Source: Candidatus Moranbacteria bacterium UBA2282
Lineage (GTDB): Bacteria > Patescibacteriota > Minisyncoccia > Moranbacterales > UBA2206
NCBI GenBank assembly: GCA_002345745.1
Contig: DDWQ01000011.1
Span: 85,995 to 149,994, forward strand
DNA: 64,000 nucleotides
Direction of reading: 5' to 3'
Positions 9,263 through 64,000 of the stretch are shown here, piece by piece. A program made the translations under genes and the position numbers. Below the pieces are notes generated by a model that was not told the DNA's origin, did no database searches, and saw only the letters and a program-made list of their open reading frames with translations. Each line of letters opens with the position of its first letter. Positions within the stretch are counted from its first letter, which is position 1.

Positions 9263-10854
9263 TTTCTTAGAGATTTAATTAACCCAAAGCGACCGAAGGA
9301 TTTAAAATCTAAAACATTAGAATTTTTTTCTAGTGTTTTTATTTTATTGTCTTTTGATTCAGTGCTAATCAAGGTAAAGACGATGTTACCAGCGACGCTA
9401 TTTTTCTTATTTAATGGTTGCAAATGCACCCCTTGCTTTTCTGTCAAATAGATTAAACCCTTGGATGCCTTAAATAAATATTGACTGTTTCCATCCAACA
9501 AAACATCTTGCGATAAGTTATTTTGTGCAGTAATGTAGTTTGCCATCATTGCAAGCTCCCCCAGATATACATTATCAAATCCATCCATATTGCTACTTTC
9601 AGTATAATTATTCAAAGCAATAAAATTATCTCTAACCGTCCAGAGATTTAAAGCAATTAAAATTATCATAATAGTTAGCGTAATAACAACCTCATTGTTT
9701 TTAAATTTCTGTATTAAAAATTCTAGCCATAAACCTAAAAATATAAATGGTAAAAAGGTGATAATCAGAAAGTATCGCAATGAAAGTTCATAAGCGACAG
9801 GAGTCATAAAGAAAGCCATAAGCCCCGCATAGCTCAAAATTAGCCCTAGGAAGCGTTTTCTATCTTCACTAGTCTCTTTTACTAATCGCCAAATTCCCAG
9901 GCCTAGACCACCCAAAAACAACAGTCCGCCCAACAAAATATCCACAATATGACCTGCTGTTTTAACTGGCAAAAAGTTGCACTGATCCGATTCTCCTACC
10001 GATGAAATTGTAAAGGTCGTGGCAGTCATAAAGCATTCCCCCACGCGTCCAGCCTTCAGCAATAAATTTTCATCTTCTTTCTTAGTTGTCACACCGCTGA
10101 AAAGAGCTTTGACATTGTCACCGCCTGTTTTTGCTTCATTATATAACTGCGGAATATTTAAAAAAATTGAAACAACAAAAACAATCATAAAACTCTTCCA
10201 GAGATTATTTTTCTTAGGCACCTCAATTCTCAGATAAACAAAATACGCAATAGTCAGCAGTGGCATCACCACGAGCAAAAAAGTGTGCAACTGCACCCCG
10301 ACGCCTACAGCGACACCAGCCATCACTGACCAGAAGATTCGATGCTTGCCTTGAGATTCGGCTAATTGCAAAAGTGCATAGAGAAAAAGCATCGTCCAAA
10401 AAGGCGTTGAATTTGGATTCCAAGCAAAATGTGCATACTTAATGGCGTAAAAAGAAACGGCAAAGAGTGCAGTCAGTGCCAGTGCTAATTTTTCACTGAA
10501 ATATTTTTTTAGGAAAAAAAACAAAAGTGGAATAGATAGCAAAGAAAAGAATAAGTCTGGGTATGCTAATTTGTCAGGATAATTGCCAAATATTTTTCCA
10601 GCAATTATTTGAAATTCATAGAAAATTGGACCCAGACGAAAATCAGTTCCACCCGCTTTTGGTCCCAAAAGTGGCCAACCAGTTTCTCCATTGATAACTT
10701 CACCAACAAGCGTTGCATCTCGTGCTTGATCAGCGTTGAACCGCAAGCCATCGTGAAAATTGTAAGTACGCAAAAAAATTCCAACTAAAATTATTGCGAG
10801 GAGAATCCAGGTCTCTTTTTTTATATTTTTAACTATGTTTATCATTTTAACCAT
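9259..10854 (-). CDS. GT-C fold membrane glycosyltransferase (ArnT/PMT-like, GT39/GT83-type), paralog 1
   Basis: N-terminal loop RFNADQARDA...PLLGPKAGG resembles the DE-x-RYA/KPPL motifs of ArnT. It is polytopic and has paralogs at 11792..13444 and 16082..17836. Confidence 0.7.
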   Translation of the reverse strand: MVKMINIVKNIKKETWILLAIILVGIFLRTYNFHDGLRFNADQARDATLVGEVINGETGWPLLGPKAGGTDFRLGPIFYEFQIIAGKIFGNYPDKLAYPDLFFSLLSIPLLFFFLKKYFSEKLALALTALFAVSFYAIKYAHFAWNPNSTPFWTMLFLYALLQLAESQGKHRIFWSVMAGVAVGVGVQLHTFLLVVMPLLTIAYFVYLRIEVPKKNNLWKSFMIVFVVSIFLNIPQLYNEAKTGGDNVKALFSGVTTKKEDENLLLKAGRVGECFMTATTFTISSVGESDQCNFLPVKTAGHIVDILLGGLLFLGGLGLGIWRLVKETSEDRKRFLGLILSYAGLMAFFMTPVAYELSLRYFLIITFLPFIFLGLWLEFLIQKFKNNEVVITLTIMIILIALNLWTVRDNFIALNNYTESSNMDGFDNVYLGELAMMANYITAQNNLSQDVLLDGNSQYLFKASKGLIYLTEKQGVHLQPLNKKNSVAGNIVFTLISTESKDNKIKTLEKNSNVLDFKSFGRFGLIKSLRN

Positions 10855-29825: not shown

Positions 29826-30010
29826 ACTTAACTATGAACCAATATAACATATTTATATCTTTTGTCAATACCTCAATTTTATGGCTTAATACAGCCCACT
29901 TTACCCAAGCCATCTTTTCCAAAATGGCTGGCGCAGAAAGGCAGGAGAGAAAAATTCGTCGTGGGTGAGATACTAACTTAGGCAAACTTAGGACGGTCCT
30001 AAGGAATATC
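29822..30010. repeat. Copy A of a roughly 185-bp repeated element ending in REP-A
   Basis: Near-identical to 30987..31175. Contains the GCCATcttttccaaaATGGC hairpin and ends gtgggtgagatactaacttaggcaaacttaggacggtcctaagg. Confidence 0.7.
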
Positions 30011-30060
30011 GTGGATGAGATACTAACTTAGGCGAACTTAGGACGGTCCTAAGGAATATT
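29961..30060. repeat. 50-bp tandem duplication carrying two REP-A cores
   Basis: The unit gtggDtgagatactaacttaggcRaacttaggacggtcctaaggaatat occurs twice. Confidence 0.7.
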
Positions 30061-38259: not shown

Positions 38260-39315
38260 TTAACCAAAATAATTCTTAATCTGTTTATATTTTTTATATA
38301 AAAAATTTGGAATTTTCCAACGCAGAGAATTGACGACGGAGGACAATTGTTTTTCTTTTTGAATAATTTCATCTTTTAGATGTTGTACTTTTTCTTCCCC
38401 AGCCTCTATTTCTCGCTCATTAGCTTGTGTTTTTTGCTTTTCATTCAATACCTCTTTAGTTTTTATTTCAATACTAATTTTATTTTCTATATTTATTTTA
38501 TTCATCATATCCATCGCATTTTTTATCGTTTTCAAGAAAAGATTATCATCAATCAAGCTTTTAGCTATTTCTAAATCCTTTAATTCATTGCTTTTCTTAA
38601 TAAAATATATTTTTCTATAAGATGGGTCTTGATTATCAAAAGGAAAAACCTCTGTATTATAAAAATAATTAAATTTCTGGTGATTACTATGGAGTTCATC
38701 TGACATATTTTCTTCAATCAAAAATTCCATCCCTAATAATAATTGCCACAAAAACAATCTGTTATTTTGTAGCTTCTGAAATGATACTGCCTTTTCTTCT
38801 AACAAATTTTCAAATTCAATCATTTCTGGCAAACCATTTTCTATATGCTCCTTGAGCCAAATATGATCCTCTCCATTATGTAGCATTTTATAATTTTCAT
38901 TTGCATTTATTTCTGCTTGCGCAACCGCTGGAGAGTAGAAAGGTGCCACTAGGACAACTCCTAATTTTGCAACTCGCAAGTTTTCCTCTAAAAAATTTTT
39001 TCTTTTTTCTTTTGGTATATGTTCAAAAACATCAGTAGAAACAACCCAGTCAAAACTTTCATCAACCAATGGCATATTGCAGCCATCCCCCTTGATAAAA
39101 TTTTCGTCCTCAGAATCAAGAAACGGATCGAGATAAAAGACATCATCCTCTGGAAAAAATTTTTTCATCCAGTTACCCCTACCACCCACATCAAGAATTT
39201 TTAATTTTTCATTACCTTTGCGATTTTTTTCTACAATATTCTGAATAGGTGCAAATCGTCCATACAAATGGAAAACCATTTCTTTTTTAAATTGTTCTTC
39301 TGCTATTTTTTCCAT
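38260..39315 (-). CDS. Class I SAM-dependent methyltransferase with a C-terminal coiled-coil region
   Basis: LDVGGRGNWM (motif I), DESFDWVVSTDVFEHIP, LRVAKLGVVLV. The C-terminal roughly 80 aa are K/E-rich and predicted helical. Confidence 0.7.
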   Translation of the reverse strand: MEKIAEEQFKKEMVFHLYGRFAPIQNIVEKNRKGNEKLKILDVGGRGNWMKKFFPEDDVFYLDPFLDSEDENFIKGDGCNMPLVDESFDWVVSTDVFEHIPKEKRKNFLEENLRVAKLGVVLVAPFYSPAVAQAEINANENYKMLHNGEDHIWLKEHIENGLPEMIEFENLLEEKAVSFQKLQNNRLFLWQLLLGMEFLIEENMSDELHSNHQKFNYFYNTEVFPFDNQDPSYRKIYFIKKSNELKDLEIAKSLIDDNLFLKTIKNAMDMMNKINIENKISIEIKTKEVLNEKQKTQANEREIEAGEEKVQHLKDEIIQKEKQLSSVVNSLRWKIPNFLYKKYKQIKNYFG

Positions 39316-40601
39316 AATGTTTCTATTTTTATTAATCCATTTTGGTTCTCTTCTTGAGAAATTATTTTAAATCCATAAAACCTATCCTTAAAATCAATTG
39401 GAGTTACACAATCCCAATTAAATAATGCTGCGGTAAATCTATAACTACCCGTGAAAAATTTATTTTCAATAATTACAAAATCAAAAGAGCCAAGACCTTC
39501 GATATAATCTATTATAAATTTAGAAGTTTTTGTATTTGGACCGGAAATATGAATTCCGTCTTGTGTATAAATAGCAACACCGAAGACAGGTTTTTCTATT
39601 TTCTTTTTTGCATTGTAATATATCCGCGCTACAATATCATCCCCTGTCTCAAAAACATTCTTTGCTTTCCCGTCCTTATCCAAAAATTCAACCTTAGTTA
39701 TTTCTATGACTTTACTTTTTCTTTCTTCGCTATCTTCTTTATTGATATTTTTTTTACCATCTTCTTCCTTTTTTTGCTCATCATACATCCTCTTTTCCTC
39801 ATCCGACATATTCTGATAGACATATTCATTGCCAACTTCTTCCGCTTTGCCAATTTTAACAATTTTTCCATTACGAAGCAACATTGCCCGATCGCAATAT
39901 CTTTGCACTACGGCGATATCATGAGTGACAATTATTACTGTTCTCCCCATACCTCGATATCTATTAAATTCTTCCAGACATTTCGATTGAAAATTTGAAT
40001 CTCCCACCGCCAAAACCTCATCCATAAGTAGTATATCACGATTAGCGTGAATGGACACCGAAAAAGCCAACCTCACCTGCATGCCGGAAGAATAGTTTTT
40101 CAATTTTTGGTCAATGAAGCGTTCCAGTTCAGAAAATTTCACAATGGAATCGAATTTCTTGTCGATTTGCTTTTTGGTCATCCCCAGCACTGTGGCGTTC
40201 AAATAGACATTATCCCGTCCGGAAAGCTCGGGATTGAAACCGATGCCCAACTCCAAAAAGGGTGAAATCATGCCATCAATCTTTACCCCGTGAAATTCCG
40301 CCTTAGGCGGACGGGCTCCGCCCGATTTCACTGGGGTGCCTTTCTTGGGTTTATCCGCCTGATAAATCCCCGCCAAAACCTTCAACAGCGTCGATTTTCC
40401 GCTGCCATTCCGACCAATGATGCCAAAAAATTCGCCCTTTTTCACCTCAAAAGAAACATCGTCTAATGCTTTGAATTCTTCGTAACCCCTCTTTTTACTA
40501 AAAACCGAAATAGCAGCTCCTCTTAGCGAGGAGATTTTTTCATGTGGTATTTTAAACGTCTTACTGACGTTTTTTACACTAATTGCGATGTCTTTATCCA
40601 T
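39303..40601 (-). CDS. wzt: ABC transporter ATP-binding protein of Wzt type, with a C-terminal carbohydrate-binding domain
   Basis: Walker A GRNGSGKST, signature SSGMQ, Walker B LLMDEVLAVGD. A roughly 170-aa C-terminal beta-rich extension. A roughly 20-aa GC-rich insertion lies after Walker A. Confidence 0.8.
   Translation of the reverse strand: MDKDIAISVKNVSKTFKIPHEKISSLRGAAISVFSKKRGYEEFKALDDVSFEVKKGEFFGIIGRNGSGKSTLLKVLAGIYQADKPKKGTPVKSGGARPPKAEFHGVKIDGMISPFLELGIGFNPELSGRDNVYLNATVLGMTKKQIDKKFDSIVKFSELERFIDQKLKNYSSGMQVRLAFSVSIHANRDILLMDEVLAVGDSNFQSKCLEEFNRYRGMGRTVIIVTHDIAVVQRYCDRAMLLRNGKIVKIGKAEEVGNEYVYQNMSDEEKRMYDEQKKEEDGKKNINKEDSEERKSKVIEITKVEFLDKDGKAKNVFETGDDIVARIYYNAKKKIEKPVFGVAIYTQDGIHISGPNTKTSKFIIDYIEGLGSFDFVIIENKFFTGSYRFTAALFNWDCVTPIDFKDRFYGFKIISQEENQNGLIKIETLWKK
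40287..40336. repeat. GC-rich nested-hairpin element inserted in frame in the wzt ATPase domain
   Basis: ccccgtgaaat tccgcc tta ggcgga cgggc tcc gcccg atttcactgggg. It encodes the extra KPKKGTPVKSGGARPPKAEF segment. Confidence 0.55.
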
Positions 40602-40652
40602 TGCTTAATAATACCTAATAAATGCCGAAAATACAATGATCCCTTACTTAAA

Positions 40653-40800
40653 AACCAAGATACAAGATAGTTAGTGAAGAAACAAGGTACAAGATACAAA
40701 CATCAAACAATATTCAATAATCAAATTTCAATATTCAAACTTTTTTGGTTATTGTCTTTTGGAATTTGTATCTTGTTTGGTACCTGTTTCTTGGTTATTG
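40653..40800. repeat. Long imperfect palindrome built from CCAAGATACAA/TTGTATCTTG units
   Basis: Left half ccaagatacaagata...caaggtacaagatacaaac; right half tttgtatcttgtttggtacctgtttcttgg. Confidence 0.55.
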
Positions 40801-40812
40801 GTAATTATTAGC

Positions 40813-41172
40813 CTATTTACCCTCTATTTTGTTTATGATGGTTGATAATATATTTTTTATCTCGTTTGCTTCTCGCTTGATGTCTTGCATACAATCTTTT
40901 AGCTCTGGGTTTGCTTCTTCAATAAGGTCTAGCCAGTGAATTGTTTCCTTGGCTTCTTTTCTAGCAATCTTCATTCGCATTATCAAATCTTTTTTGCCTA
41001 AAGAATCATTTGCTTCTCGATAATTTGCTCCAACAGAACCAGCCGAGCCTACAGCTTGCCCTGTTAGGCGATTGTTTATTGAATTTTTTGGCAAAGAAAT
41101 ACACAATCTAACTACCCGTTTTCCGAATTCAGTAGTTCTTTCCTCTAAATCAAATTTGCGATTATTTTCCAT
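40813..41172 (-). CDS. Four-helix-bundle protein (23S rRNA intervening-sequence protein family)
   Basis: 119 aa. AVGSAGSVGANYREA and KETIHWLDLIEE segments typical of this family. Confidence 0.7.
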   Translation of the reverse strand: MENNRKFDLEERTTEFGKRVVRLCISLPKNSINNRLTGQAVGSAGSVGANYREANDSLGKKDLIMRMKIARKEAKETIHWLDLIEEANPELKDCMQDIKREANEIKNILSTIINKIEGK

Positions 41173-41229
41173 AGATATTTTTTTAATGTTTGTTTTTTGT
41201 ATTTTGATGCTTGAAATTTGTTTGGTTAT

Positions 41230-41300
41230 TGTATCTTGGTGTTTGTATCTTATTTTTGCGTTTGTATCTTGCTTAGCGTTTGTATCTTAAGCATTATTTG
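41230..41300. repeat. Iteron-like direct repeats: 4 copies of GTTTGTATCTT spaced 15-18 bp apart
   Basis: ttgtatcttggt, gtttgtatcttat, gcgtttgtatcttgc, gcgtttgtatcttaa. Confidence 0.6.
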
Positions 41301-41321
41301 ATATTTCTTAGATATTATAGC

Positions 41322-42662
41322 CTATTTTTTAATAATTTTCCAATATCCTCCCTTGTCGGGACCAACCCTTTTTAGCAAATCTTTTTCCTTTAATTTTGAG
41401 ATATCTCTTTTAATAGTTTTTTCATTAACACCTGCCTTTTTGGCTATTTCTGGAATTGTAATTCTATTATTATTTCTAATAATTTCCACAACAATATCTT
41501 CTCGATTTTCAGGGACATTTTCAGGGACATTTTCAGGGACATTTTCTAATGCCATTCTTTTGAAAATTATAGAGAACCAATTCTCGTTGGTTTCAATTTT
41601 TGGATTTGGAAGACCATATTCTTTCATGGCTTTTTTCATCCGCAGAATTCCAGACCCTATTTTCTCCACCAAATCCATTCTCTGCATCAAGCCAAATAGA
41701 AGATTATTTCTGGACAAACTTCTTTTACCCAATTCTTTTATCGTCATTCCCCGCACTAGCCCTCCGGGATTAGTTATTTCAACTCGATCAGAAAAAATAT
41801 AAATCTGAATATTCGCACCTGTCACGAAATAGTTTCTGTGCGCAATTGCATTCAGGATTGCTTCGCGCAATGCGTCTTCTGGTAGTTCTAATTTTTCTTC
41901 TCGCGGTCCACCTTTTATGATAAATTCTGTGTTCAACTTTGAACGCAGATAATCCATGGCATTCTCATAATTGCTAAATAGGTCAGCATCAAATTCTTTT
42001 CGGTCCAATATTCTGTATTTTGTCCTTCCATAAAAAAGCACGCATGTAATCGTTGACTGCAAAAGAAACTTTGTAATATCATTGGAAAAAAGAAGTACAC
42101 CGGCATTTTTCATTTTATCATCAGAGACCAAATTAAGATTTGTCAAAATGTCGCGTGTTGGCAAAATTTTTCTTATATGAGATAGTCGTAAAAAGTTATT
42201 AAAAGATTTTTTATTTAAATCCTTTTTGATATCAAATTTTTCATTAACCCTCTCATCAAAAAGAACCAGGCCTTCTTTTTGAAAAAAATATTTGATTTCA
42301 TTTCTCGTAAGTTGCTGACTATTGGCTCCTTGGCGCAAGTAAAATTTTCCCACAATTGAATATGGTTTTTCTTTGCCCTCTGGGACATCAACAATCAAAA
42401 TACCCTCAATTTCTTGCAAATGTATGGTCATTTTCGGATCAAGATTTCTGCCAATAACCTGAATTTCTGATTTTAATTTGTTGGTAATTTTGATTTCTTT
42501 TTTTATTCCGGAATCAGTAATTCCAATAAATATCTTTCCCCCAGAAGCATTGGCAAAAGCACACATTTCTTTTCCAATTGTGGAACTATGCGACTCTTTA
42601 AATTCAATATTATAGCCTTCTCCTTGGCTGATATAAAATTCTAATTCTTTTTTCATTAACAT
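41322..42662 (-). CDS. AlbA_2 (Schlafen-like) plus HATPase_c_4 (RecG-C-like) plus wHTH putative ATP-dependent DNA-binding regulator
   Basis: N-terminal YNIEFKES...CAFANASGG (AlbA_2/divergent AAA). The C-terminal wHTH is RITIPEIAKKAGVNEKTIKRDISKLKE. It contains an ENVPENVPENVPEN repeat. Confidence 0.6.
   Translation of the reverse strand: MLMKKELEFYISQGEGYNIEFKESHSSTIGKEMCAFANASGGKIFIGITDSGIKKEIKITNKLKSEIQVIGRNLDPKMTIHLQEIEGILIVDVPEGKEKPYSIVGKFYLRQGANSQQLTRNEIKYFFQKEGLVLFDERVNEKFDIKKDLNKKSFNNFLRLSHIRKILPTRDILTNLNLVSDDKMKNAGVLLFSNDITKFLLQSTITCVLFYGRTKYRILDRKEFDADLFSNYENAMDYLRSKLNTEFIIKGGPREEKLELPEDALREAILNAIAHRNYFVTGANIQIYIFSDRVEITNPGGLVRGMTIKELGKRSLSRNNLLFGLMQRMDLVEKIGSGILRMKKAMKEYGLPNPKIETNENWFSIIFKRMALENVPENVPENVPENREDIVVEIIRNNNRITIPEIAKKAGVNEKTIKRDISKLKEKDLLKRVGPDKGGYWKIIKK
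41507..41546. repeat. 12-bp tandem repeat (3 units) inside a CDS, encoding (VPEN)n
   Basis: agggacattttc repeated three times. Confidence 0.8.
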
Positions 42663-53551: not shown

Positions 53552-53663
53552 AATAATGTAGTCTTTAAAGTCATAAAGTTGAAAGTCCTTAAAGTCTATA
53601 AAGTCGAAAGCTTTACGGGCTTGACGGACTTTTGGACTTGATAGACTTTACAGACTTTTAGAC
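53552..53663. repeat. Intergenic palindromic array of twelve 9-bp units (AAAGTC half, then GACTTT half)
   Basis: gtctttaaa gtcataaag ttgaaagtc cttaaagtc tataaagtc gaaagcttt acgggcttg acggacttt tggacttga tagacttta cagactttt agactt. Confidence 0.65.
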
Positions 53664-58491: not shown

Positions 58492-59646
58492 CTAGTTCTT
58501 CAAATATTCCAGAGTCTCTTGCGCGCATTTTTCCCAAGAGAATTCTTTTAATTGCTCACGCCCTTTTGCAATCAACTCAATTTGCAGATCTTTAGAAATC
58601 AAAACTTGTTCTATTTGTGTACTGAGTTGTGCTGTATTCTGTGCATCAAAATATAGTGCACCTTCTCCACCAATTTCTCGCAAAGAAGAATTATCCGCTG
58701 TTATCAAAGGCACACCAGCGGCATATGCCTCTAGGATTGTGATGCCAAAGCCCTCATAAAGTGAAGGATAGACAAATACACTAGCCCCCCGAAACAAACA
58801 CCCTACATCGCAAAATTTGAGCCTGCCAGGCATTATGATGTCTTTAGAATAGACGCTATTTCTAGCCTTTTTTTCTATAGATTCCGCGAGCCATGCCTTT
58901 TCTCCCGCTAAAACCAATTTGAGAGCGCAAAAGGAGCTAAGCTCCCAAGCTTGGGAGCTTAGCTCCTTTTGCTTCCGGCTTTTTAATAAGTCAAATGCCT
59001 CAATCAATTTTTCAATATTTTTTCTCGGCTGTAACGCACCAGAATACAAAATATACTCTCCTACTATTCCAAGTTTATTTTTCAATTCTTGCTCTTTGCC
59101 ATGATCACGTGCTTGAGAAAAAACATCTGGACTAAAGCCATGATAGATGACCTGGATTTTATTGGCGTCAATTTCCGGATAAAATTTTATGATGTCATGC
59201 TTGGTCGCCTGTGAAATGGCAATAATTTTGTCTGCCTGCCTAATTGAGTAGTCCGCAAATAAATTTAGTTTGCGTAAATCTTTTGGAGGAAAATATTGTG
59301 GAAAATATTTAAAAGCCAAGTCATGAATAGTCACCACTGTTTTCAAATTTTTTCGACGTAGATATGGCAGAGCCGCCATCGGCATCCACAAAACAGTTGG
59401 TTTTTCTTTCCACACTTCCCATGCAAATCTAATTTGCGTCCACAGGATTGGAAAAGACTTTTGAATAATTTTATAATTTGAAAATTCCGGCGGAGTGAGT
59501 TCCGGATTAAATTTACTTTTGTGATAAATTAAAAACTCGCTCTGTAAATCTAGCTTGCCAAAGTGTTTTAGCAAGTTAAAAATATAGACGCGAGTTCCAT
59601 CAATGCGCTCGTGATCAAGGTCAGCTGCAGAAATTGCAATTTTCAT
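58492..59646 (-). CDS. GT4-family glycosyltransferase carrying an in-frame 46-bp perfect palindrome at the inter-domain linker
   Basis: YPSLYEGFGITILEAYAAGVPLITAD motif. Inserted peptide KELSSQAWELSSF. Confidence 0.8.
   Translation of the reverse strand: MKIAISAADLDHERIDGTRVYIFNLLKHFGKLDLQSEFLIYHKSKFNPELTPPEFSNYKIIQKSFPILWTQIRFAWEVWKEKPTVLWMPMAALPYLRRKNLKTVVTIHDLAFKYFPQYFPPKDLRKLNLFADYSIRQADKIIAISQATKHDIIKFYPEIDANKIQVIYHGFSPDVFSQARDHGKEQELKNKLGIVGEYILYSGALQPRKNIEKLIEAFDLLKSRKQKELSSQAWELSSFCALKLVLAGEKAWLAESIEKKARNSVYSKDIIMPGRLKFCDVGCLFRGASVFVYPSLYEGFGITILEAYAAGVPLITADNSSLREIGGEGALYFDAQNTAQLSTQIEQVLISKDLQIELIAKGREQLKEFSWEKCAQETLEYLKN
58927..58972. repeat. Perfect 46-bp palindrome inside the GT4 CDS
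   Basis: GCAAAAGGAGCTAAGCTCCCAAG|CTTGGGAGCTTAGCTCCTTTTGC. Confidence 0.9.
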
Positions 59647-62837: not shown

Positions 62838-63857
62838 TTATGATTTTTTCAAATATTCTTTCAAGGCATCTTTATAACTTCGCAACGGATTGAGTTTGGT
62901 GTTAAGTAACACTGAATAATATGGTCGCTTAGCCGGACGGGGAAATTCCGCTCCATCCACAGGAATGACTTTCGTCTTCAATTTCGCCTGCTGATATAAT
63001 TCTAGAACAGCTTCGTACCAAGTGCAAGGGTCGCCATTTACAATATGATAGATGCCAAATGGCTTCTCGGCTTCAACAATTTCCTTAGTTTTCTTCGCCA
63101 AATCAGGTGCATAAGTGAAACAACTCGTTTCTTCATCCACCGCCTTTACCATTTTATTCTTTTTACCTGCTTCCAGCATCACATCAAAAAAACTGCGTTT
63201 GGCATTTTCTGCCTGAGCTGGTTTTCCAAAAATTTTAGATGGTCGAATAATATAAAAATTCTTAGTATTTTTCTGCACTTCTTTTTCACCCAGCACTTTA
63301 GACTTGCCATAGTTAGAAATCGGATTAGTTTTTGCCTCTTCATCAAAGCCAATTTGTGGCCAGCCTCGCATCGACGAGCGGTCGTCTCCGCGAGTCGAGG
63401 CGGGCACGAAATCAGTATGCAGACTGCAAGAACCGCAAGAATGTGTGCATCCAGTTGGCTCAGGAATTTCAGGCTCGCCGTCAAAAACATAATCAGAAGA
63501 ATAATTCACAAAAACAGCCTTGATTTTCTTTGCCACTTTGGCAAGATACCCCGGTGCTTTGCCATTTAGTTTTTTCGCCAACTCATATTCTTTTTTATCT
63601 TCTTCGCATTTATCCACGGCGTTATAACCCGTAGCATTGATAATAATAGCTGGTTTAAGTTTTGTCACTTTAGCAATTACTTGCTTTTCAGAAGTGATGT
63701 CAATGTCATCTCGATCCCACGCCACAACTTCATAGGCTGTGTCTTTTTTAAAAGCTATTACTAGTTCTTGACCCAACATTCCCCGCGCACCGATTATTAA
63801 AACTTTTTTCTTCTCCGAAGGTTGAGCCTTCGGAAGACTAATTTTTTTATTCACCAT
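62838..63857 (-). CDS. rmlD: dTDP-4-dehydrorhamnose reductase with a roughly 35-aa GC-rich in-frame insertion
   Basis: VLIIGARGMLG, YSSDYVFDG, NPISNYGKSK (YxxxK). The start is taken at MVNKK (63857), where ATGGTGAATAA overlaps the rmlB stop. ORF track 62838..63917. Confidence 0.75.
   Translation of the reverse strand: MVNKKISLPKAQPSEKKKVLIIGARGMLGQELVIAFKKDTAYEVVAWDRDDIDITSEKQVIAKVTKLKPAIIINATGYNAVDKCEEDKKEYELAKKLNGKAPGYLAKVAKKIKAVFVNYSSDYVFDGEPEIPEPTGCTHSCGSCSLHTDFVPASTRGDDRSSMRGWPQIGFDEEAKTNPISNYGKSKVLGEKEVQKNTKNFYIIRPSKIFGKPAQAENAKRSFFDVMLEAGKKNKMVKAVDEETSCFTYAPDLAKKTKEIVEAEKPFGIYHIVNGDPCTWYEAVLELYQQAKLKTKVIPVDGAEFPRPAKRPYYSVLLNTKLNPLRSYKDALKEYLKKS
63364..63470. repeat. GC-rich structured insertion within rmlD (nested hairpins)
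   Basis: GCCTCGCatcGACGAgcggTCGTCtccGCGAGtCGAGGC ... tgcagactgca. It encodes PTGCTHSCGSCSLHTDFVPASTRGDDRSSMRGWP, which Salmonella RmlD lacks. Confidence 0.5.
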
Positions 63858-64000
63858 ATTGTTTTTTATAATAATTTTGATAATCCCCACTCTTGATATT
63901 TTTCCACCACGATTCATTGTTTTGAAACCAAGCTAACGTCTGAGCAATGCCTTCTTCAAAAGTCACTTGTGGTTCGAAACTCAGTTCATTTTTAATTTTT
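63853..64000 (-). CDS. rmlB: dTDP-glucose 4,6-dehydratase, C-terminal 49 codons (gene continues beyond the window)
   Basis: Minus-strand translation ...EEGIAQTLAWFQNNESWWKNIKSGDYQNYYKKQYGE* matches the RmlB C-terminus (WY.N..WW..vksG.Y). Confidence 0.6.

Follow-up and report, generated by a model that had tools for sequence, protein, structure and literature searches.

Palindromic 'selfish DNA' that lies in frame in genes has been seen as an oddity of Rickettsia and of a few genomes rich in repetitive extragenic palindromes (REPs). The Rickettsia palindromic elements (RPEs; Ogata et al. 2000) are described in later accounts as dispersed, non-coding palindromic repeats of which many lie in frame in unrelated housekeeping genes and encode peptides compatible with the fold of the host protein; RPE-1 measures about 100-150 bp, a CGTC tag marks the short RPE-4 and RPE-6, and these accounts confine the elements to Rickettsia and its relatives (PMC10969869, PMC3733652). 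REPs are single hairpins of 20-40 nt with a stem of 8-9 bp and an unpaired GTAG or CGTC tag, and most of them lie just downstream of genes (Di Nocera et al. 2013, PMC3733652); some are intragenic, often in DNA repair genes, and the CGTC class has no dedicated transposase (PMC3733652). Bacterial transposable elements of the miniature inverted-repeat type (MITEs), such as Correia/NEMIS, Nezha and QMITE, usually span 70-300 bp, have target-site duplications and are traceable to an insertion sequence (IS) with matching ends (PMC10969869). Here we describe a GC-rich palindromic element of 55 nt that lies in frame in the wzt gene of Candidatus Moranbacteria bacterium UBA2282, within a stretch of 64,000 nt of contig DDWQ01000011.1 (positions 85,995 to 149,994; hereafter the window). 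We propose that the segment is a copy, probably old and now immobile, of a dispersed family of short palindromes, that it occupies a permissive loop of the Wzt nucleotide-binding domain (NBD) and that it is translated with the gene, a reading that we consider likely.

The host gene is an intact open reading frame (ORF) of 432 aa (39303..40601, minus strand) that encodes the ATPase of a polysaccharide/O-antigen ABC exporter with a C-terminal carbohydrate-binding domain. Its product matched the Pfam families ABC_tran (3.1e-19) and Wzt_C (4.4e-21), both above the cut-offs, and its closest solved relative was the Wzt protein of Aquifex (8dku, E = 3.4e-58). The NBD has Walker A (starting at residue 63), the signature SSGMQ (171), Walker B LLMDE (191) and the H-loop THD (225), and Wzt_C completes the set of features that define a Wzt protein. 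The element occupies 40282..40336 on the plus strand, which is the orientation of the family consensus and antisense to wzt, and reads TTTA-CCCCGTGAAAT-[28 nt]-ATTTCAC-T-GGGG. After TTTA (40282-40285) comes the left conserved arm CCCCGTGAAAT (40286..40296), made up of CCCC (40286-40289) and GTGAAAT (40290-40296), and then two inner hairpins, TCCGCC-tta-GGCGGA (TCCGCCttaGGCGGA, 40297..40311) and CGGGC-tcc-GCCCG (CGGGCtccGCCCG, 40312..40324), all on the plus strand. The right conserved arm (40325..40336, plus strand) consists of ATTTCAC (40325-40331), an unpaired T (40332) and GGGG (40333-40336). The first hairpin is the same in the wzt allele of locus L001 and the second differs there in the loop alone (CGGGC-gaa-GCCCG on the L001 coding strand). 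On the coding strand of wzt the left arm supplies F-H-G and the right arm (T)P-V-K-S, and just upstream of the element on that strand are the extra codons CCC AAG AAA GGC A (P-K-K-G; 40337..40349, minus strand). Altogether 20 extra codons, aa 85-104 (PKKGTPVKSGGARPPKAEFH; 40290..40349, minus strand), are in frame and would be read through.

The element folds as a three-way nested hairpin in which an outer stem encloses the two small hairpins. As single-stranded DNA its fold reached -22.5 kcal/mol (z = -5.6; none of 200 shuffles matched this stability), and as coding-strand RNA -32.7 kcal/mol (z = -2.8). The insert is the most GC-rich 60-nt stretch in wzt, with a GC content of 0.62 (0.36 outside it) and a third-position value (GC3) of 0.60 (0.35 outside it). 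For the pattern GTGAAAT-N(15-45)-ATTTCAC the window has one occurrence where 0.06 would be expected, and neither exact, one-mismatch and relaxed patterns nor a six-frame peptide search found a second copy in the 64 kb. The source is uncultivated and assembly errors can create palindromes, so that an assembly chimera or a sequencing error in the metagenome contig has to be weighed. However, the identical 50-nt sequence, together with the gene, was recovered from three independent data sets (JGI 3300002702, ENA ERZ27315057 and Logan SRR1313259), and related copies stand at the same site in many assemblies; the palindrome is therefore not an assembly artefact, an explanation to which we give hardly any credence.

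At the protein level, Walker A and FLELG are spaced 57 residues apart, 19 more than the 38 of canonical homologs and of Aquifex Wzt 8DKU, and the alignment to 8dku is gapped at the extra segment. The insertion lies outside all catalytic motifs, which are preserved together with the reading frame. AlphaFold returned a predicted local distance difference test score (pLDDT) below 50 for residues 87-100, between a helix (69-76) and a strand (106-108), in an otherwise confident model, and residues 85-104 are predicted to be a disordered loop at the surface, between the helix that follows Walker A and the next beta strand. Since its length keeps the frame and it holds no stop codon, the segment would be transcribed and translated with wzt as a flexible loop rich in Lys, Pro and Gly, leaving the ATPase intact. 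The insert, at 20 residues (57 nt), is far below the size of an intein or of a group I or group II intron, and Rfam at permissive thresholds gave no match to a ribozyme family, and nothing near a gathering score, for the window element. The original prediction, made from the sequence of the window alone, had claimed a GC-rich nested-hairpin element in frame in the ATPase domain of Wzt, about 20 extra residues after Walker A and a codon usage that deviates from that of the host. Sequence and fold are as it described, the extra residues and the divergent composition were confirmed, and it placed the arms and hairpins correctly, although the conserved unit turned out to be slightly longer and to include the 5' TTTA.

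The insert is not unique to wzt of the source genome. Among the 120 closest Wzt proteins, which come from Moranbacteria, Minisyncoccota and other groups of the Candidate Phyla Radiation (CPR), about 95 have the 38-residue spacing and about 20 carry an insert at the same loop. The inserts share the ends (V/I)(H/Y)PVKS ... (E/Q)F(H/N)GV, which at the DNA level are two complementary arms: every wzt insert for which DNA was available has either CCCC-GTGAAAT...ATTTCAC-GGGG or the doubly changed form GTTAAAT...ATTTAAC. In the latter, the change of GTG to GTT in the left arm, synonymous for Val, is paired with a change of CAC to AAC in the right arm, so that PVKS stays as it was and FHG becomes LTG. 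The pairing of the arms is conserved; the peptide is not. The interiors vary, with one or two hairpins and a total length of 39-63 nt, and the interior peptides are unrelated between alleles. One explanation for these inserts is an ordinary lineage-specific peptide loop, for example a basic one in contact with the membrane, Wzm or the polymer, in which the palindrome is incidental. The segment does keep the frame, it abounds in Lys, Pro and Gly and it is located in the ATPase domain, and PVKS...FHGV recurs in several homologs. However, the shared residues are exactly those coded by the complementary arms, the double change of GTG and CAC saves the pairing and not the peptide, AlphaFold assigns the loop no structure, and the same DNA is read elsewhere in both orientations, giving PVKS...F(H/N)GV in one and PREI...IS(Q/R)G in the other. 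We regard a loop selected as a peptide as very improbable.

Alleles that carry the element (filled) and alleles that lack it (empty) were compared on a tree of the ATPase domain alone, because the C-terminal domain is mosaic and the full-length Wzt tree was misleading. In the ATPase-domain tree the subtype TPVK[YC]AKG...EFHG formed a near-clade that included two remnants and one empty allele, which fits vertical descent with loss, and the remaining filled alleles were placed beside empty ones. Over the ATPase domain, the filled P0003 is 97.5% identical to the empty P0103, P0005 (filled) is 94.3% identical to P0016 (empty; 91.7% in DNA), and P0002 (filled) is 94.3% identical to P0088 (empty). 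Set against the empty alleles of L011, L040 and L057, L001 has a 54-nt insertion between GGCAG and GGTGAAAGTAAAC, and a further 9 nt upstream of it; on the downstream side of the insertion the alleles agree fully over about 50 nt, and just upstream they diverge strongly in one patch, as would be expected of a recombination tract. L205 differs from L204 (91.7% nucleotide identity) by insertions of 48 nt and 9 nt, and in several wzt alleles the filled DNA differs from the empty by such a short second indel of 9 nt in addition to one of 48 or 54 nt. A stretch PKKG, PKRG or PRKF precedes the element in P0001, P0002, P0003, P0005, P0061 and P0068. Remnants are also found: P0009 and P0010 read KRKFNGV and retain only TTTAACGGGGTGAAA, and P0043 reads NHGV and retains only CACGGGGTAAAG.

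The point of insertion differs between alleles, being between AAR and GGN in L037 and in one copy of L217 (L217-A) and after GGCAG in L001 and in the other (L217-B), while in L015 K-G-K codons are replaced; there have therefore been at least three independent events within a window of 12 nt. The protein encoded at L217 (P0008) holds two copies of the element, 6 nt apart. In addition, an unrelated hairpin, CCGAAGG-ttgaa-CCTTCGG, is present in the same wzt loop of P0019 (L216) as two in-frame copies (positions 10259 and 10282), and once in a nearby truncated and frameshifted wzt fragment (L216 8107-8406). The wzt loop is a hot spot, in which tandem copies and remnants are found as well as a hairpin family unrelated to the first. 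The native codons at this site are often GGN GTG AAA (G-V-K), which resemble the arm and end of the element, and this likeness may explain the hot spot. As a separate observation, L026 has two wzt paralogs 3 kb apart on the same contig (6953-7123 and 10184-10354), with different element subtypes in the same loop (SAKGGAKQFHG and SRLLSGNLTG).

The same arms are dispersed well outside wzt. A scan of species genomes with the pattern CCCCGTKAAAT-N(10-40)-ATTTMAC-N-GGG listed at least 120 loci, and the family statistics given here derive from 137 non-redundant copies in the 120 listed loci, a minimum for the family; chance matches would number a few tens by a rough hand estimate that takes uniform base composition and the whole 596-Gb collection. 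The family consensus is (G)YTTR-CCCCGTKAAAT ... ATTTMAC-(N)-GGGG, about 45-65 nt long, with inverted arms of 11-15 nt and a variable interior that usually holds one or two small hairpins. In the arms, the K and M positions, which the pattern left free, are complementary in 126 of the 137 copies (G..C in 67, T..A in 59) and mismatched in 11. The 5' flank, which lies outside the pattern, is conserved in 104 (TTTA 53, TTCA 22, CTTG 15, CCTG 14). The unpaired or mismatched base of the right arm is T in 51 copies, A in 40 and C in 18, and is absent from the 28 perfect palindromes. The interiors fold better than shuffles (-0.170 vs -0.079 kcal/mol per nt). Copies at many loci, conserved inverted ends and hairpin potential thus make this a dispersed palindromic repeat.

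Among the listed loci the CPR hosts include Patescibacteria (Parcubacteria, Moranbacteria, Nomura-, Taylor- and Kuenenbacteria), and other hosts are, among others, Desulfobacterales (Desulfobacterota), Bacteroidales and Saprospiraceae (Bacteroidota), Cloacimonadota, Chlorobium, Gammaproteobacteria, Verrucomicrobiota, Omnitrophota, WOR-3, Calditrichaceae and Neomarinimicrobiota. On viral contigs the element is rare, with eight matches. In several assemblies (for example E14_maxbin.173, GMC6.maxbin2.173, KR11_N3.mb.38 and SO_2017_GW1_11) copies were found on two to four contigs. At some listed loci they are tandem or adjacent, and hexamers resembling the arms are 3.6-fold enriched in the flanks. 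Most copies are not in long ORFs; depending on how this is defined, 12-20 of about 135 are, and about 15% of copies are in frame in unrelated genes. Pfam searches put among the in-frame hosts ribosomal protein L18, DNA polymerase I, triosephosphate isomerase, UvrB, a Mur ligase, TatD, a MalK-like ATPase, a radical-SAM/UPF0004 (MiaB-like) enzyme, a GT1 glycosyltransferase and a Wzy_C-domain protein, and the host ORFs other than wzt are uninterrupted, with Pfam domains matching on both sides of the element. One subfamily alignment (A2) joins eight copies with a mean column identity of 89%, from three wzt loci, a GT1 gene, a Wzy_C-domain gene and two sites outside long ORFs. In it 92.8% of cells are paired and three pairs have compensatory changes, and its covariation score of 0.150 (0.067 for shuffles) was reached by none of 500 shuffles. 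As the same subfamily is found in wzt, in the GT1 and Wzy-like genes and at sites outside long ORFs, the element is not an invention of wzt.

These comparisons bear on the remaining claims of the original prediction, which had taken the segment for an inserted element rather than native Wzt and had named an alignment of homologs and a search for further copies with the same arms as checks. The alignment upheld the insertion: most homologs are without the segment, and the filled ones have in common the DNA arms and the hairpin architecture and no conserved peptide. Had homologs carried the same insert with ordinary codons and no secondary structure, the claim would have fallen; instead, homologous inserts keep the palindrome through compensatory changes. 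The window has no other copy, yet at least 137 with the same arms are present in species genomes of many phyla, both intergenic and in frame in unrelated genes.

Two element-bearing loci showed further peculiarities. In the uvrB gene of the uncultured bacterium MJ-2014-D5_bin-329 (L133, 57-160 and 700-800), a wzt-type element contains a second copy nested within it (PVKSP[PSEI..NFTG]Q..QFHGV), and the same gene has a QNPNSK tandem repeat and an element STRGDDPSSIRGG of the type found in rmlD (below), which amounts to several palindromic or repeat insertions in one essential gene. At L191, the RNase P RNA match (1603-2199) is 597 nt long against a model of 367 positions and may hold inserted segments; its contig also bears two wzt-type elements. 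Rfam searches of 18 element-bearing loci returned RNase P and tRNAs only, and Rfam gave no match for the second palindrome family, that of rmlD (below), either.

To account for the window copy, we propose that it landed in, or recombined into, a permissive surface loop of the Wzt NBD, and that copies at this site would be kept or lost neutrally. Within wzt lineages its main route of spread would have been transfer together with the allele, through homologous recombination in the strongly conserved DNA that encodes the ATPase, rather than active transposition. As there is no second copy in the window or around the filled wzt genes, the element here resembles a relic carried along with the wzt allele, probably by recombination. 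Since the arms are conserved across phyla and the flanks are asymmetric, we speculate that arm or hairpin is recognized in a strand-specific manner.

Several results weigh against this proposal. No excess of direct repeats that would mark a target-site duplication was detected at offsets of 0-7 and lengths of 2-5. Between paired copies (L144 and L194) there are only ordinary genes and no transposase. All-against-all clustering of 2,916 ORFs from the 120 listed loci gave no recurrent neighbour gene, save polysaccharide genes and the four-helix proteins of 23S intervening sequences (23S-IVS). No full-length parent element or IS was found, although whole genomes were not searched for a parent IS. 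Because target duplication, transposase and parent are all missing, mobility is read from the distribution of the copies alone. Moreover, about 165 kb around filled wzt genes contained no second copy, as was the case for the window, against seven extra copies in 184 kb of the CPR loci found by pattern; in these lineages the element therefore behaves as if specific to wzt, which would be compatible with targeting to a specific site or with a function linked to wzt. The hairpins are kept by compensatory change, and this could reflect selection on structure and not neutrality. The translation of the segment as a flexible and tolerated loop is itself deduced from frame and structure model. With regard to a source of transposition activity, phmmer with REP-associated tyrosine transposase (RAYT) and IS200 TnpA queries gave one weak-to-moderate match in the 120 listed loci, 4 kb from the element.

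Some of these points would be met by a functional role. The hairpin could be a cis element of wzt, acting in mRNA or DNA and perhaps recruited from a mobile repeat; a translational pause that aids folding of the ATPase, a target for an RNase or an antisense RNA, and a site of recombination or phase variation were considered. Such a role would sit well with the persistence of the hairpin at one wzt loop across diverged CPR lineages with compensatory changes, with the wzt copy being the sole one in the window and in the flanks of the other filled alleles, and with the presence of two unrelated hairpin families in the same loop. However, most close and even near-identical homologs lack the insert, and their ATPase domains align over the whole length in uninterrupted proteins; the insertion point shifts by several bases between wzt alleles, and decayed copies are tolerated (L054, P0013, P0009). 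The same family is also found in unrelated genes and in intergenic DNA, with no preference for gene ends and no bias of orientation: the copies lie between tandem (35), convergent (11) or divergent (11) genes and have the same polarity in 16 cases and the opposite in 14, which leaves a role as terminator or 3'-UTR element unsupported. We therefore consider a cis-acting function of the hairpin unlikely, and prefer the reading of the segment as a copy of the dispersed palindrome family, carried along and translated with wzt.

How this family relates to the described systems can be judged feature by feature. Its closest analogues are the RPEs and the intragenic REPs, both of which include tolerated in-frame insertions, often in genes of DNA repair and replication, with no transposase linked to them. 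It is like the RPEs in consisting of dispersed palindromes that are read through in frame in a small-genome bacterium, in having no known linked transposase and in counting uvrB and polA among its hosts; the site in wzt is also RPE-like in its in-frame insertion, in the homologs without the segment and in a position compatible with the fold. The family is unlike the RPEs in its length of 45-65 nt, its CCCCGTKAAAT arms and variable interior, its spread over about a dozen phyla and its mostly intergenic location. With REPs it shares short GC-rich hairpins that occur singly, as dimers or in clusters and are mostly intergenic with an intragenic minority, but it is untagged, has long outer arms around separate inner hairpins and shows no preference for the 3' end of genes. 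A classic REP was rejected since neither a GTAG nor a CGTC tag is present in consensus or flanks and there is no association with RAYT. Like MITEs, the members of the family end in inverted repeats of about 11-15 nt, vary in the interior, lack coding capacity and fall into subfamilies, and in-frame fusions of MITEs with ORFs do occasionally occur (PMC10969869); unlike MITEs, they are only 45-65 nt long, no duplication is detectable and no parent IS was found. In the absence of these marks and of a recurrent neighbour gene, the status of a MITE is not demonstrable. The most fitting classification of the element is as a new family within the known REP/RPE/MITE-like group of palindromes that are able to sit in frame in genes. 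We found no description of the family in the literature, either by the arm sequences or among palindromic or MITE elements of CPR bacteria, which is not proof of novelty, and a protein-database search with a composite of three element-encoded peptides gave three candidates among the matches listed, none of them informative.

Another possibility is that the arms are the target of a site-specific recombinase, of the attC or Xer/dif type, and mark a cassette or a junction. Integron attC sites have the order 5'-R''(RYYYAAC)-L''...L'-R'(GTTRRRY)-3' and occur in cassette arrays with an intI gene, and several of the host phyla carry chromosomal integrons; the XerD arm of dif also ends in GTTAAAT. The arms GTTAAAT and ATTTAAC agree with the core of attC, GTTRRRY, and with the inverse of this core, RYYYAAC, and, as in attC, the element is an imperfect palindrome with conserved outer boxes, a variable and maybe branched centre and extrahelical bases, one of them in one arm. 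However, the boxes are reversed (GTTRRRY...RYYYAAC), and since their order is opposite to that of attC this is not an attC site; neither cassette arrays nor a recurrent integrase-like neighbour was found. The spacing of the arms varies from 10 to 40 nt, ordinary genes lie between paired copies, no recombinase gene recurs nearby and the element sits in essential genes, none of which suits a recombination target, and we hold this explanation to be highly improbable. Xer/dif sites, parS sites and CRISPR repeats were dismissed on the order and spacing of the boxes, the self-paired interior and the lack of a recurrent neighbour gene. In the unit that gives rise to tandem interspaced guide RNAs (tigRNAs), palindromic stems flank two spacers of 9 nt, with box C (CNA) and box D (YG) as their bounds, and the units form arrays beside tas (bioRxiv 10.64898/2026.09.09.750476). 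Inspection by eye of both strands of the window interior and of the arrays of L172 and L115 revealed no intervals of box C, spacer and box D, and the interior is self-paired; nearby genes were unscreened for Tas. The window copy is solitary, unlike the units of an array.

Further palindromes are present in the window. The rmlD-like gene (62838..63917, minus strand) hosts two. One, which represents a second palindrome family, is a GC-rich palindrome of 37 nt (window 63362-63400; coding strand CTCGACTCGCGGAGACGACCGCTCGTCGATGCGAGGC, translated as ASTRGDDRSSMRGW) within an insertion of about 38 residues relative to solved RmlD structures (1vl0); L133 (in UvrB), L168 (in a long ORF) and L217 have copies with about 80-90% identity. 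The other, of a third family, a hairpin CCGAAGG-ttgag-CCTTCGG (63815-63833) in the N-terminal extension at the 5' end of rmlD, belongs to the same family as the hairpin in the wzt loop of L216. A perfect palindrome of 46 nt (58927-58972) lies in frame in a GT1 gene (58492..59646, minus strand) and consists of two GGAGCTAAGCTCC hairpins head to head, encoding KQKELSSQAWELSSFC. It is situated between the conserved helix motif LIEAF and the strand motif LVLAGE and, on inspection of the sequences, matches the position of the wzt-type element in the GT1 protein of L137; a related dimer is intergenic in L216, about 90 nt upstream of wzt (9905). In all, four palindromes in this 64 kb window of a CPR genome are internal to a gene or stand at its start: one in wzt, two in rmlD and one in GT1.

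Taken together, these data allow a broader reading, which we put forward tentatively and at somewhat less than even odds. Uncultivated bacteria with small genomes, in the CPR/Patescibacteria and in some other groups, would have been colonized by several families of miniature GC-rich palindromes of about 20-65 nt that are routinely in frame in essential genes, with a true hot spot in the Wzt loop; as the arms of 11-15 nt are conserved across about a dozen phyla, a widely shared enzyme that recognizes or propagates them would be implied. If so, this would be a much broader counterpart of the Rickettsia RPE phenomenon, and could be a new way of mobilizing hairpin DNA. The cross-phylum family, the wzt hot spot and the four gene-associated palindromes are out of the ordinary, and the window shows RPE-like in-frame behaviour four times. 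Perhaps some low-confidence loops in CPR proteins such as L18, PolA, TIM and UvrB are repeat insertions and not lineage-specific adaptations. The presence, absence and remnants of the element in the wzt loop provide a natural system in which to follow gain, decay and recombinational spread in polysaccharide loci, and possibly a strain-level marker.

Among the neighbours of wzt are genes for a methyltransferase and a WsaF-like glycosyltransferase. A gene of 119 aa for a 23S_rRNA_IVP four-helix-bundle protein (40813..41172, minus strand) lies immediately upstream of wzt, and between the two, at about 40650-40800 in the region 40602-41320, there are AT-rich inverted repeats, AACCAAGATACAAG ... 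CTTGTTTGGTACCTGTTTCTTGGTT. Genes of the 23S_rRNA_IVP family are near elements at 4 of the 120 listed loci and at L216. Upstream of the 23S_rRNA_IVP gene is a gene for a Schlafen/AlbA_2-like ATPase (41322..42662), in the place where wzm directly adjoins wzt in other loci. Short repeats occur at 29987-30053 and 53582-53658, of which one is a 17-nt palindrome, CTTAGGACGGTCCTAAG, present twice, 33 nt apart, inside a longer direct repeat, and the other a 28-nt imperfect inverted repeat of AAAGTC/GACTTT units.

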